Source: an uncultured Clostridia bacterium
Lineage (GTDB): Bacteria > Bacillota > Clostridia > Christensenellales > UBA1242
DNA length: 64,000 nucleotides
Reading direction: 5' to 3'
NCBI GenBank assembly: GCA_934754375.1
Contig: CAKVHT010000002.1
Coordinates: 11,257-75,256, forward strand
This document shows positions 27,478-42,811 of this stretch, one piece after another. Position 1 is the stretch's first letter. Every line of letters begins with the position of its first letter. The position numbers were made by a program, and so were the translations under genes. The notes under the pieces were generated by a model, which did no database searches, was not told the origin of the DNA, and saw nothing but the letters and a program-made list of their open reading frames with translations.

Positions 27478-27507
27478 TAAAAAAAGGAATAGTTACAAAA
27501 CTATGCC
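27478..27507 (-). terminator. Rho-independent terminator ending the SipW operon
   Basis: The minus strand reads GGCATAGTT-TTGT-AACTATTCC (one mismatch) followed by TTTTTTT. The TAG stop of the 259-aa gene lies inside the stem. Confidence 0.7.
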
Positions 27508-28280
27508 CTTTCGAAATAAACATTGATTTCCATTGTGAAGTTATCAGTTGTTAAAGTCTCTTCGTACGCATTGTCTAGAACGACACCGTTGAATAAGTCT
27601 ATGCGTCTGCCACCAGCAATGGCTGAGTTGCTAACATACTTTCCGTCCTCGGTCGAATGGAACAAATCGTGATTGTATTCATAAGCAAAAGTGTTGTTAA
27701 GTTTTACACCTGCTTGGAAAACTTCAATTGTGAAATAAACGTTATAGTTGCCAGAAGAATGAATATCAATGTCTGTATCAATAAGATAGACCCTGTTGCC
27801 TTTCACACCAATTGGCGTACGGAACTTGTTCAACTGTTGACCGTCGACATAACAATCAGCAGACACGTTGCCATGCACTTTGATTTCGCAGTTATTAACC
27901 ATACGTTGAATACCAACGATAACCGCAATTGTTGTGATTGCCGCAACAAGCAAAATTATAAGAGTAATAATAACAAATCGGTTACGTGTAACACGGCTTC
28001 GATATTGTTTTAAGTTGTTTTCGTTGATAGTTTCCAAGTCATCAATACTGATGTTTGATGATTTTAAATGGTCTTTTGTTTTTTGTTTCTTTTTAGCAAT
28101 TGGCTTTTGTGCCTGGGTTTCACTTAAAGTGCTTTTTGGCACAATAGGTGTTTGCCTTGCTGAGATTGTTTCGCTTGGGGTTTGTGGTGGTACTGGTCTG
28201 CTAGCGGATGAAAAATTAGGCGCAGATGATTGCGTCGGTCTTGATTGTAAATTTGGTGAATTTATATCTTTTTCTGCCAT
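27501..28280 (-). CDS. Bitopic membrane protein (259 aa) with a Pro/Ser/Gln-rich N-terminal tail and a beta-rich C-terminal ectodomain
   Basis: SD GGGGAGA. About 100 aa of low complexity (SRPTQSSAPNFSSASRPVPPQTPSE), then a single TM FVIITLIILLVAAITTIAVIVGI, then ~140 aa. Last gene of the SipW operon. Confidence 0.65.
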   Translation of the reverse strand: MAEKDINSPNLQSRPTQSSAPNFSSASRPVPPQTPSETISARQTPIVPKSTLSETQAQKPIAKKKQKTKDHLKSSNISIDDLETINENNLKQYRSRVTRNRFVIITLIILLVAAITTIAVIVGIQRMVNNCEIKVHGNVSADCYVDGQQLNKFRTPIGVKGNRVYLIDTDIDIHSSGNYNVYFTIEVFQAGVKLNNTFAYEYNHDLFHSTEDGKYVSNSAIAGGRRIDLFNGVVLDNAYEETLTTDNFTMEINVYFERA

Positions 28281-42700: not shown

Positions 42701-42811
42701 AGATGGCGAATTAAAATAAATATTTTCAACTGCTACCTTTTGTTCACACCCTGCAAACAACAAAGAGAAAACAGCAACTAACAAACAAATGATTAAACTT
42801 TTCTTCTTCAT
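33773..42811 (-). CDS. Giant surface lipoprotein adhesin (3,012 aa): Big_2-like domain, Fn3-like repeats, C-terminal GLUG-like cassette
   Basis: Signal MKKKSLIICLLVAVFSLLFAGC|EQ. Big_2-like LLVGETYTPNVYFSPSYPTNKAYKIISGDDKII..ITALTAGKTYIKA. At least 6 Fn3-like signatures (VLSWQAINGVESYAVYL, VLSWNNVQNAVSYQVKV, VIEWQKIDGATEYVLTF, YISWQAVENAQGYKVTF and others). C-terminal G-G-x-x-G repeats from aa ~2615. Confidence 0.9.
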   Translation of the reverse strand: MKKKSLIICLLVAVFSLLFAGCEQKVAVENIYFNSPSADGVVLLVGETYTPNVYFSPSYPTNKAYKIISGDDKIISSRNNQITALTAGKTYIKAVADENDLIQDVMLVQVVSKITKLSTPTIAYSAEKQSFTISSASQDGFINGYTIEINGESIAIGNVLEYSLADYDKHLQSSTTTAGLSAYDRDLTVRVKATVPTYTNALEDSNFSQTIKINQASAPKSINVENGILTVQKANTNNYQVYIDNALIGSSSNSTFDLAVVSNTLANKFVQVGVKTVGKASTGFTAYDSETVVLNVKCIENLNLSMANNVLSWQAINGVESYAVYLNNEQTPRYTVNTNYFDLKTITNFETLFEPGHNYQISIKPVLNGTKNLIQSANQIATKAFSKLTKPTLTCTNNVLSWNNVQNAVSYQVKVVDQDKNIVLNLATANNTIDFASNVFESGKQYTAIVTANFVDGDIAYLSSEQAEYIVQKMPTVSAEIVNYNLVFSASINHQYLIRILDSDKQELYSQTFTANVQEMSISLLDLGLTLQSGEYSIEIKHFGNGSSSIDSAVTNVQFVQLTTVDTANIENGYINVEAGEFNNQHNANIKLELIKDGTVIQTIDNGADLNALNLDAGSYQINVYVLGDNASIFSVLENKLEKVCASLPFSVLPAPTITTQADEPRFTINQVSGAVSYNIIENDNVTNVQNLVYNFDLTSGANRVFVLVAVGNGTTSLNSPISATYQFARENTPVLMFNNLTNALTTDYDGSNYALKLNGHDITTSYSFGSALTSLIEGQNIIEMIVTAQNRNGCIYINSLPQTIEINKHSSDAKFEIVGNKLVITPTKTHDNAILAVEINSSLGSVAFDETDFETVNPLLALEKLGDSYYLTLLDEKYNPILPETATNFNIKIKFVAGHNDGNDSSATSDFSSNVEIKLAPSTTFDMAVRDKQNISFNSSLSYGYNDYILLVNNKYLLRLDSTAIVDSESQTIKFDVEYIYNNLPADDVQEINSVTIITLNNKTSETELMLSSIGETILIKRANSLNLISSKNNSTEFGNNSVRISFDELATNYDRRFMIKVFNTTDEEINFATLLIDPTPSLSSQYSYTFNLDDYGKNLVGTKSVIAFVQAESSYSFVDENSVTKLVYVFNSVASNQLDYTIVDKPIYSTDGAKIYFELPENVDGVDIFKKTESGLTKLNGNLITSAYDFGLNDGNMTLVVKSVSKTDDGYTNSQNSEEIDIVKLTSPSVSIEDGLIVLTIDQTSANLFENTIFDQSQDLATLQGCVIRFVDSIGTTQYLYKGVEGVSLKANKLIVDPTVVLKYGVNSLIKENVKFDVLANGDTGKIFLYSNLVSTDFYGLFAPTSVSLPAVADPSEVKTQTLTWGDTGLNVLSNGTDVLAGYTFRLIDANGNEYLSNNNLVYLEYNAEQDNYVETSYPSIITTSSVVFPYGYKNEEGATVPFSSGNYLVQVKSMPKTAVEGYNLCCSGYSTAVKVILLETPILTVNEGVIEWQKIDGATEYVLTFEDVNNSSIKQTVVLSTNKYEFDGFNDYVGNYIVKVKAVSNLNNVVNSITSDTICVHRMPCYTNVNVDDGVLILEANKLFTTAKLSFRNTTTGVVETLTYTNPSYEENISALVNAGYENWTGTNVDTLNIAQKYVINIRDSYLLQLSKGTYSLSVKLIGNTRGDFALVNSASKQEKSISSFTKLAFDPEKENVEDKTWIRVDERGVFTFACPEEFMLGGFNYQFNKKVSGIDYSFYKNTIVYKLIVKINNNPYEMFAVDYKTFIANKSLIDSSLLTEFEDTASLCAMIKYPYLDNRGETKYLYFNVFKNDQINFNLDNFYYYQSKMVANKGSVTLTSNLNTANDHGYYIISLIEGGVFSIDLHILGSDITDVSGVNQAYLSTDLYSSKSFIRYTDNNLKSYISYEYADDTGSSTETLNGETGETTTKFTFTYSGDLIFQNKLKKDQNGVAMDYPVYQLEITPIVYYDGGTIDPRPYIYYLYHDATTVEQVANGNPITEFVNKQFVKVQTLEHNDEYLKFEFSKYFVPGNYSIKIRTLAGVGTENLDSRYLLNARVPSTSYPFKRLSNTYLQVNSGKLQFDLAYVLNDKIKTYITDYEFVVKDLNNAGSTSEYNFKINQYSEGVSISNNVLTYVLPETVEATRVDGEQNVIEKISLINGKKFGIKVRAIQTEEKDTGILNATFVKTNDEDKVTNIEKSKGLDYVGIKQGVIVWRVKDEANYNGTVIRIEFEDGRVIEETITKDRTLKKEFDGAEYYYYEISDNEYTCIDGIGKSKINAGNYTIKLLTLGKYDSTNDIEILNSNYTDAQDMVRLSKVSPDVIVSNNGVLVWEHLDQAHINQYIVVLTGAKTYTFTTVNPQIDFTITADNYGNLLETGSYSIVIKAVGADYISSMQSNSATGFTKLATVTGATEKDDYISWQAVENAQGYKVTFEWTDSSGAESTSEQTVLATQELKCVAPEQLTGSYTIKIQAVGVDTGKVFNGGVYVFTGSNERPQPVGEIRFDETNLSLYIPIAEDFKTNDKLRISYNIAKYTFNGAGSSLGDSTVEVVEINNGDTNYMQEIEGKIYYVYPLTTAGKYTQLSVSVVRKDSLTSVATPYADIDFNYFASGDGSETTPYGIANASQLLNITLKPNKHFELVQAINMSSVDMAKQINANGAIIANKFTGVLDGKDFSLFGMTNVDVSNSQVSNFAGISLFRQLENATIKNLNIAETDNNPTKFVNTFAQRQTNVLKSSLIAMDSTNATLSNISVVNATIQLAGNYALLSNAYIAGLVGEAVNTTFEGCIVNLNVEVQADFVSTSGSVYVGGISAYAKGVKVASSVSRATSVSLSVTQSNTNRRFKAIGGVAGYMANNGSTTAEISNATSTISQTTNIYADNFGGLVGDAINVNITGCTVLGAFNHTALETTNLGGLVGQMQGGSIDDCTIKLQFNLSISNSNKLYIGFVTGYVTSNNGTMASISNCKINQTFTNKTQFSSDYKSVELMGIYGGSSQNNYNPTGCTQID

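Follow-up and report, generated by a model that had tools for sequence, protein, structure and literature searches.

The DNA analysed here, a window of 64,000 nucleotides (nt) from an uncultured Clostridia bacterium of the Christensenellales (contig CAKVHT010000002.1), carries on its minus strand a compact group of six open reading frames (ORFs), all co-directional and lying within positions 27501-42811. The first encodes a predicted lipoprotein of 3012 amino acids (aa), the second a signal peptidase assigned to the SipW type, the next three are genes for predicted secreted proteins of 791, 219 and 584 aa, and the last encodes a bitopic membrane protein of 259 aa. With moderate confidence, we read this operon as a SipW-dependent surface fibre or matrix system of the TasA superfamily in uncultured gut Christensenellales. 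Its genes and associated signals are the following.

42812-42930, minus strand: AT-rich upstream region with a Shine-Dalgarno (SD) sequence and promoter-like hexamers, a candidate promoter
33773-42811, minus strand: gene 1 of the operon, encoding the predicted giant lipoprotein (3012 aa)
33147-33764, minus strand: SipW-type signal peptidase gene (205 aa)
30732-33107, minus strand: gene for the 791-aa secreted protein (791 aa)
30055-30714, minus strand: gene for the putative 219-aa subunit (219 aa)
28293-30047, minus strand: gene for the 584-aa protein (584 aa; the mechanical ORF extends to 30128, which gives 611 aa)
29268-29840, minus strand: LamG-like insert 1 of the 584-aa protein (about residues 70-260)
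28668-29180, minus strand: LamG-like insert 2 of the 584-aa protein (about residues 290-460)
27501-28280, minus strand: gene for the 259-aa bitopic membrane protein (259 aa)
27476-27512, minus strand: candidate intrinsic terminator, an AT-rich hairpin with a T-run over the last stop codon (RNAfold)

The ORFs are separated by gaps of 8, 39, 17, 7 and 12 nt, and re-deriving them reproduced the layout given in a preliminary description of the locus. That description had also credited every internal gene with its own SD and the giant gene with abutting sipW, and both points hold, each start being preceded by a purine-rich SD: the giant gene is preceded by AAAGGGG, the sipW SD (AAGGGG) overlaps the TAA stop of the giant gene across the 8-nt gap, and the remaining four genes have AGGGGG, AAAGGAA, AGGAGA and AAAGGGGAGA. 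Two other starts were discarded, the 204-aa start that gene callers choose for the 219-aa gene and the 611-aa start of the 584-aa gene, as both are without an SD and are contradicted by the orthologue alignments. Upstream of the operon, promoter-like hexamers match at 9/12 positions in 42850-42878 and at 10/12 in 42901-42928. Since promoter-like matches barely exceed the shuffled expectation in this AT-rich DNA (91 observed against 73.9 +/- 8.3), the element at 42850-42878, which had been named as the operon's promoter, is treated here as a candidate. At the 3' end, the hairpin GAAAGGGCATAGTT-TTGT-AACTATTCCTTTTTTT folds at -10.4 kcal/mol (RNAfold). Thus the hairpin proposed earlier does exist, but both calls are weak, with the 9/12 promoter near the shuffled level and the AT-rich hairpin not called by the consensus terminator scan; terminator-like matches in the region are about as common as in shuffled sequence. 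A single promoter and terminator is plausible. A Pfam scan of the flanking ORFs gives no helix-turn-helix (HTH) regulator, in agreement with the earlier remark that no sinR/sinI-like regulator is nearby.

The exact peptidase sequence occurs on 14 gut-metagenome contigs and in the metagenome-assembled genome (MAG) GCA_964323615.1, and among species-representative genomes the nearest is a MAG of Candidatus Onthoplasma (Christensenellales). A search for related genomes with a 10-member alignment of the 219-aa protein shows that 7 species-level genomes share this gene order, with aa identities of 47-76%. In L009-L013, the five whose flanks are long enough, all six genes are present, and sufC, sufD and a second gene for a giant lipoprotein come next. 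A distant clade (L014-L016) keeps the same order at 22-32% identity, with different flanking genes: a giant gene (at least 2700 aa), a SipW-type gene (32%), genes for proteins of about 880 aa (22%, E 8e-5) and about 240 aa (23%), one for a protein of about 170-214 aa with a GSWLSD junction, one for a bitopic protein of about 254-301 aa (26-28%), and an extra TasA-like gene. Because it recurs in the same order across close genomes and the distant clade, the six-gene arrangement is not due to chance. The extra gene, seventh in order after the bitopic gene (L014 12550-13317, L015 12700-13365, L016 12683-13420), encodes a protein of about 220-255 aa with an FGGTYAYF junction. The L015 product scores 17.1 bits with TIGR04088, a 34-position model of the SipW-cognate signal whose cutoff is 19 bits, and weakly matches the BsaA family.

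By its sequence, the 205-aa protein is an archaeal or endoplasmic reticulum (ER)-type signal peptidase I, that is, of the SipW type. It passes TIGR02228 (archaeal/ER-type signal peptidase I) marginally, at 53.1 bits against a cutoff of 51.85, and its distant-clade orthologues in L014 and L015 reach 77.9 and 70.9 bits. It also matches Peptidase_S26 (PF10502) with an E-value of 7.6e-10. An N-terminal transmembrane segment is followed by S52 (GSMEP, within SGSMEP), H91 (TVHRL) and D106 (GDN, within HGDN), and then by a C-terminal transmembrane segment, with the hydrophobic stretch MLFITIILGLWCFTYV near the C-terminus. The S-M, H-R and GDN boxes are kept in five close orthologues. A Ser-His(-Asp) arrangement, in which His replaces the bacterial-type Lys, together with an extra C-terminal transmembrane segment, is what defines the ER/SipW type, as in SipW and Sec11. 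The assignment made earlier from these boxes is thus upheld by both the model and the signature, while the protein fails the Bacillus SipW equivalog model NF046067 (27.2 bits against a cutoff of 190).

All three secreted proteins begin with a K-rich n-region and a hydrophobic core, after which comes a junction of the kind found in TasA. Cleavage is predicted at VYA32|A33FSW in the 791-aa protein (VVYA|AFSW), at VYA30|Y31FTARATVEG in the 219-aa protein (VVYA|YFTA) and at TGA32|W33FTDSS in the 584-aa protein (VTGA|WFTD), so that Ala stands at -1 and Phe at +2 in each, the pattern of TasA. These are the junctions read in the preliminary description, and they are conserved in the orthologues. The 20-28 residues that follow the junction are the most conserved part of all three proteins (73%, 72% and 81% identity). 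In the 791-aa protein, the first 28 mature residues have 81% identity against 53% for its extension. Identity is also lower in the rest of the 219-aa protein (54%) and in the inserts of the 584-aa protein (25-34%), whose C-terminal core comes close at 66%. Such a conserved segment fits a constraint imposed by the peptidase together with a donor-strand role.

The 219-aa protein has no Pfam or NCBIfam match of its own; indeed, when all six proteins are scanned with both collections, nothing is matched beyond the peptidase. A word-indexed search finds 11 close relatives, and an exhaustive HMMER profile search extends the family to about 155 clusters at 50% identity, nearly all of 200-250 aa. Some members of the 106-member family alignment (A2) reach named families: 19/106 match TIGR04088 (best E 6.2e-7), 2/106 weakly match the BsaA-family model TIGR04090, and 3/106 weakly match PF12389 (Peptidase_M73), the Pfam model of the TasA/camelysin family. 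At database-wide E-values of 1e-5 to 1e-4, the family profile reaches the proteins P0358, P0359 and P0360, all of which pass the PF12389 gathering cutoff of 22.5 bits (23.8, 27.2 and 23.2 bits, respectively). In profile-to-profile comparison with hhalign, the family scores 96.6% against P0359, and a small alignment of P0358-P0360 raises this to 98.5% with E 3e-15 over the full length. The closest PF12389-positive relatives adjoin an S26 peptidase, several paralogues of about 200 aa, and large VWA or Flg_new proteins.

Only two residues are invariant in the 106-member alignment, F32 and Q200. F32 lies at +2 from the predicted cleavage VYA|YF, the same placement as F29 of TasA, whose sequence and mature N-terminus (AFNDIK) were confirmed against the chain start of PDB 8AUR. 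Q200 lies in the C-terminal motif KITISYEAVQAN, which hhalign aligns with TasA's KLQFSFEATQWN, and corresponds to the Q of TasA FEATQ. In the AlphaFold2 (AF2) model (pLDDT 81), the beta-sandwich core reaches about 90, and residues 29-44 fall below 50 and are disordered, as expected in a monomer for an unpaired donor strand. From these profile alignments, the 219-aa family emerges as a clear, if remote, branch of the TasA/camelysin superfamily. The protein contains no histidine (0), which rules out zinc-metalloprotease ('camelysin') activity, so it is not a zinc protease. Separately, NF053819, a model of the EF2685/EF0750 family of sortase-dependent surface proteins, weakly matches the N-terminus (30535-30714, residues 1-60; E 0.004-0.016, in 5/106 family members). 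This probably reflects signal-peptide similarity, as no LPXTG is present. Sortase anchoring was rejected for the operon, LPXTG being absent from every C-terminus.

The 584-aa protein has more than 2000 relatives, but most have only its internal domain in common with it. Its true orthologues in related genomes are of about 590-615 aa, about 410 aa or 220 aa, and have two, one or no inserts depending on the species: insert 2 is missing from the orthologues of about 410 aa in L010-L012, and both are missing in L013. When the insert-free 220-aa orthologue of L013 is taken as the frame, hhalign places the family over its full length on the 219-aa family at 97.5-98%. The 584-aa protein can therefore be described as a TasA-like paralogue whose core is split by 0-2 inserts, and these profiles make it a clear remote member of the TasA/camelysin superfamily.

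AF2 models the inserts (about residues 70-260 and 290-460) with confidence, and as modelled they are LamG-type jelly-rolls. Insert 1 shows the motifs LEYIESTGTQYIDTG ... GMYDLVEDKFYTNQGTGTF. In a Foldseek search of BFVD, they match uncultured Siphoviridae proteins with E-values of 5.8e-14 and 2.9e-11 (TM-score 0.46-0.76, root-mean-square deviation 2-3 A), and several further viral proteins annotated as LamG or ConA-like. In the PDB, they match the neurexin LNS domain, laminin LG4-5, agrin and pentraxin with a probability of 0.97-1.0, at E-values of only 0.004-0.1. Pfam has no match for the inserts, nor PHROG for the 584-aa protein. The LamG-type jelly-roll is typically a ligand- or glycan-binding module. 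Since the best structural matches are proteins of uncultured gut siphoviruses, the module appears to be common to phage structural proteins and bacterial surface proteins. The inserted domains reported earlier are thus present, as two LamG-like jelly-rolls that vary among orthologues. Apart from the operon, the insert region (28668-29840, minus strand; motifs LEYIESTGTQYIDTG ... GMYDLV..KFYTN.GTG.F) has homologues in metagenomes that number more than 2000, P0050-P0131 among them; many lie in proteins of about 1000 aa, some with PF14594 (Sipho_Gp37), PF09479 (Flg_new) or PF16467.

The third paralogue is less sharply defined. Residues 5-172 of the 791-aa protein, signal included, align with the 219-aa family at 75% (hhalign, E 2.5e-5), rising to 89% (E 2.2e-6) once the distant orthologues are added, and probably form a TasA-like domain. 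Beyond residue 172 or so lies an extension of about 620 residues, apparently beta-rich, which bears out the earlier description of an oversized protein with an appended part. The full protein has no Pfam, NCBIfam, PHROG or PDB match, and a PDB sequence search with the extension returned nothing relevant. Pairwise hhalign comparisons among the 584-, 791- and 259-aa families give no match, and these families are joined only via the larger 219-aa family profile.

The binding modules raise a different possibility, which we regard as unlikely: the three secreted proteins might be independent monomeric SipW substrates (lectin-type adhesins or camelysin-like proteins) that have a TasA-like carrier domain and a dedicated peptidase in common but do not co-polymerise. 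The ligand-binding habit of LamG-like modules would suit such proteins, as would the precedent of Clostridium perfringens, where BsaB stays out of the BsaA oligomers and secreted BsaC is monomeric (PMC11580942). The strand that follows the cleavage site is, however, highly conserved in all three, and a set of major and minor paralogues is typical of donor-strand systems. The 219-aa protein, moreover, has neither an extra domain nor a histidine, so that it is not apparent what it would bind or catalyse by itself.

The 259-aa protein has a variable, low-complexity N-region, predicted to be cytoplasmic (the positive-inside rule gives N-in), a transmembrane segment at about residues 101-124, and then a conserved ectodomain of 135 aa. 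Identity is 72% over the ectodomain and 87% in the juxtamembrane motif NISxDDLETINE.NLKQYRSR. The TapA family model TIGR04087, like the others tried, gives no match, and a PDB search with the family profile found nothing relevant. Homologues occupy the same position in the distant loci L014 and L015 (E 9e-15 and 6e-9). As a separate observation, the 219-aa protein (residues 103-107; 30394-30408) and the 259-aa protein (residues 127-131; 27888-27902) share a VNNC[DE] motif whose Cys is conserved. C107 of the former is invariant in close orthologues, C131 of the latter lies in the ectodomain directly after the transmembrane segment, and hhalign aligns the two motifs; the Cys is a possible contact or disulfide site.

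The giant protein that opens the operon is predicted to be a lipoprotein from its N-terminus, MKKKSLIICLLVAVFSLLFAG|CEQK, which reads directly as a lipobox (LFAG|C) with Cys at +1. It has at least 5 FN3-like modules (W..V..A..Y.V; residues 306-366, 395-452, 1488-1547, 2330-2392 and 2419-2480) and, in its C-terminal part, about 300 aa of Gly-rich repeats in which the GLUG motif is matched weakly, below threshold. A PDB sequence search with this C-terminus found nothing relevant. Orthologues stand at the same position in L009-L013 (46-57% identity), and the giant gene of L014 and L015 is homologous at 24% identity (E 1e-17 to 1e-20); in L016, a gene of at least 2722 aa is placed by position alone.

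Whether this gene belongs to the system can be questioned, as it might simply be adjacent to a functional unit made of the five downstream genes. The giant protein has a lipobox, and so a signal peptidase II site, instead of a SipW-type junction, no domain ties it to TasA biology, and its gene does not abut sipW in the distant clade, where the two are 85-200 nt apart. Yet a homologous giant gene stands immediately upstream of sipW in both clades, although identity between them has dropped to about 32% for SipW and about 24% for the giant itself, and in the window the 8-nt gap places the sipW SD over the giant's stop codon. Mere adjacency seems doubtful.

The surroundings of the operon indicate a chromosomal location, since the window includes an L10 leader with rplJ/rplL, tRNA-Ser, sufCD and a spoIIID homologue. 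Directly downstream, sufC starts 110 nt after the operon with its own SD, and together with a sufD-like gene (238 and 309 aa) occupies 25773-27390 on the minus strand; no sufB or sufS is seen adjoining them. As the pair is syntenic in the close clade only, the idea that it belongs to the system was rejected. A SpoIIID-family gene (25140-25442, plus strand; 100 aa, with PF12116 matched on the identical L001 copy) separates sufD from the second giant gene, so the lineage retains the sporulation regulon at least in part. The second giant ORF (4668-24704, minus strand) encodes 6678 aa with a lipobox (LSAC|G), and its first 3333 residues have no Pfam match. It is found downstream of sufCD at the same position in L009-L013 (42-65% identity), and shares a single weak similarity with the 3012-aa protein (24% over about 370 aa, E 3e-4). 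After it comes a predicted lipoprotein of 359 aa (SFVG|C; 3362-4441, minus strand) with no family match. On the other side, a divergent 154-aa orphan (43138-43602, plus strand), also present upstream of the operon in same-species contigs, shows neither a cysteine-rich nor an HTH signature and is unmatched in Pfam and PHROG; a regulatory role is possible. Further upstream (43857-45793) are genes for a Macro-domain protein (minus strand) and for a GT2 glycosyltransferase fused to TPR repeats (plus strand). Two ATP-binding cassette (ABC) exporter genes lie beyond (45912-49397); none of these upstream genes was linked to the cassette.

These neighbours lend some colour to the idea that the TasA-like proteins and the giant lipoprotein or lipoproteins build a cell-envelope coat, a surface or spore-associated layer, and not a fibre. 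TasA itself was originally reported under the name CotN, as a protein associated with the spore coat. The conserved neighbourhood encodes two giant lipoproteins (of 3012 and 6678 aa), and the spoIIID homologue is about 2 kb downstream. Nevertheless, spoIIID is on the opposite strand, the distant clade keeps the cassette without the sufC-sufD-second-giant neighbourhood, and TasA polymerises through the very elements that are strongly conserved here, the N-terminal strand and the C-terminal strand of FEA.Q type. A coat is improbable.

A model for the fibre can be proposed by comparison with TasA, which polymerises when residues 28-38, exposed by SipW, enter the next subunit, TapA being thought to donate the first strand (PMC9674648). 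Here, the peptidase would remove the signal peptides and so expose an N-terminal beta-strand. By donor-strand complementation, that strand would then enter the next subunit, as residues 28-38 (F29) of TasA do. The 219-aa protein would be the major repeating subunit. The 584-aa protein, with 0-2 LamG-like lectin modules by species, and the 791-aa protein, with its extension of about 620 aa, would be minor decorated subunits with a binding function, and might also initiate the fibre by supplying its first strand in the manner of TapA or of AbpB, a 410-aa protein proposed to be a first-strand donor with distal adhesive domains (PMC9245690). The 259-aa protein, whose ectodomain would have no donor strand of its own, may tether or terminate the fibre at the membrane, and the giant lipoprotein may be a co-expressed surface partner. 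We infer the heteromeric nature of the fibre and its tie to the giant protein solely from the conserved gene order.

Several observations weigh against this interpretation. The fibre is predicted from sequence and models, and the stoichiometry and polarity of its putative subunits are guesses. No direct match to TIGR04088 was obtained for the 219-, 584- and 791-aa proteins, either at full length or with the N-terminal 70 residues at E<=10, so the SipW-class signal claimed earlier is not recovered by that model in the window's own proteins. Nor do the three match PF12389 at E<=1. Foldseek with the 219-aa model finds no significant match in the PDB, as those to the NF-kB RHD, concanavalin and 7UEG are all insignificant. 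The best TasA-superfamily match is the archaeal bundling pilus (ABP) pilin 7UEG (E 0.12, TM-score about 0.25), TasA itself is outside the top 50, and a PDB sequence-profile search with the family profile does not find TasA either. The earlier description of the 219-aa protein as TasA-like thus holds at the level of profile-to-profile homology, but not as a direct PF12389 match or a significant Foldseek fold. The TasA-like core of the 584-aa protein is modelled with low confidence. The 259-aa ectodomain aligns weakly with the C-terminal part of the 219-aa profile (hmmsearch 16 bits, hhalign 59-72%), by which it is tentatively related to the C-terminal part of the TasA-like domain; the protein is bitopic and unmatched by the TapA family, as first described, though this weak alignment qualifies its supposed dissimilarity. 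Finally, the 3012-aa protein has no significant domain match and no recognisable adhesin domain, so that of the label "giant lipoprotein adhesin" the lipobox stands, and the adhesin is putative.

Comparison with known systems clarifies what is shared. Like tapA-sipW-tasA of Bacillus subtilis, the cassette places a dedicated ER-type peptidase beside its predicted substrates, which have Ala at -1 and Phe at +2. It also encodes a predicted beta-sandwich subunit of about 200 aa, whose N-terminal strand is conserved and which has a C-terminal strand of the FEA.Q type, and an accessory protein of roughly TapA size. Unlike in B. subtilis, the similarity is visible only from profile to profile, the peptidase is not an equivalog of Bacillus SipW, and there is no TapA homologue (TIGR04087) and no SinR/SinI. 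The cassette has instead three paralogous substrates, two of them with large inserted or appended domains, an accessory protein that is an uncleaved bitopic membrane protein, and a leading gene for a 3012-aa lipoprotein. The clostridial sipW-bsaA-bsaB-bsaC operon of C. perfringens likewise combines SipW, TasA-like paralogues (two there) and a large accessory secreted protein, and its BsaA oligomers are membrane-anchored (PMC11580942; Obana et al., 2020, cited there). However, the VWA domain of BsaC is absent from the cassette, and C. perfringens has no giant lipoprotein, no LamG inserts in a TasA-like fold and no bitopic partner. The AbpA/AbpB pair of Pyrobaculum calidifontis (PDB 7UEG) likewise includes a donor-strand pilin of the TasA superfamily, and its larger partner provides the logic proposed here for the 584- and 791-aa proteins (PMC9245690). 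Nonetheless, the ABP operon is archaeal, has no dedicated peptidase, and shows no significant sequence or Foldseek similarity to the cassette.

By analogy only, the cassette also recalls chaperone-usher pili (FimH/PapG), with their major subunit, lectin-bearing minor subunits, terminating or anchoring subunit and donor-strand complementation, although these are made of unrelated proteins, belong to a diderm envelope, and require a chaperone and an usher. A more specific proposal, possible but held quite tentatively, is that the operon encodes an unrecognised Gram-positive appendage, a membrane-anchored heteropolymeric pilus of TasA type. Assembly would begin tip-first from the lectin-bearing subunits, whose LamG modules resemble phage receptor-binding ones, and continue by extension with the 219-aa protein until capture by the acceptor-only bitopic protein, with the lipoprotein of about 3000 aa as a partner. 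Such a pilus would be a sortase-independent, chaperone-free functional analogue of chaperone-usher pili.

The preliminary description had taken the arrangement as one not yet described. No description of this gene set was found in the literature on SipW in Christensenellales or on TasA-like gut pili, nor in the curated NCBIfam and Pfam families, but there are known precedents for operons that combine SipW and a large accessory protein with several TasA paralogues. Because sipW-bsaA-bsaB-bsaC is among them (PMC11580942), the cassette is a variant and not an unknown kind of system. Its new elements are the LamG modules inside the subunit fold, with species-variable copies, the uncleaved bitopic partner, and the conserved giant gene that leads the operon.

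What is understood so far of TasA-type donor-strand fibres comes from a handful of cultured models, namely B. subtilis, B. cereus, C. perfringens and two hyperthermophilic archaea. The present cassette is a much more elaborate version, retained by uncultured gut Clostridia with small genomes, and as Pfam and NCBIfam models miss it beyond the peptidase, such systems are invisible in annotation. If the fibre reading is true, the cassette would offer a natural case of domain insertion into a donor-strand subunit, which is relevant to engineered protein fibres, and its products would be candidates for the means by which these commensals, abundant though uncultured, adhere to glycans, to host surfaces or to other cells.

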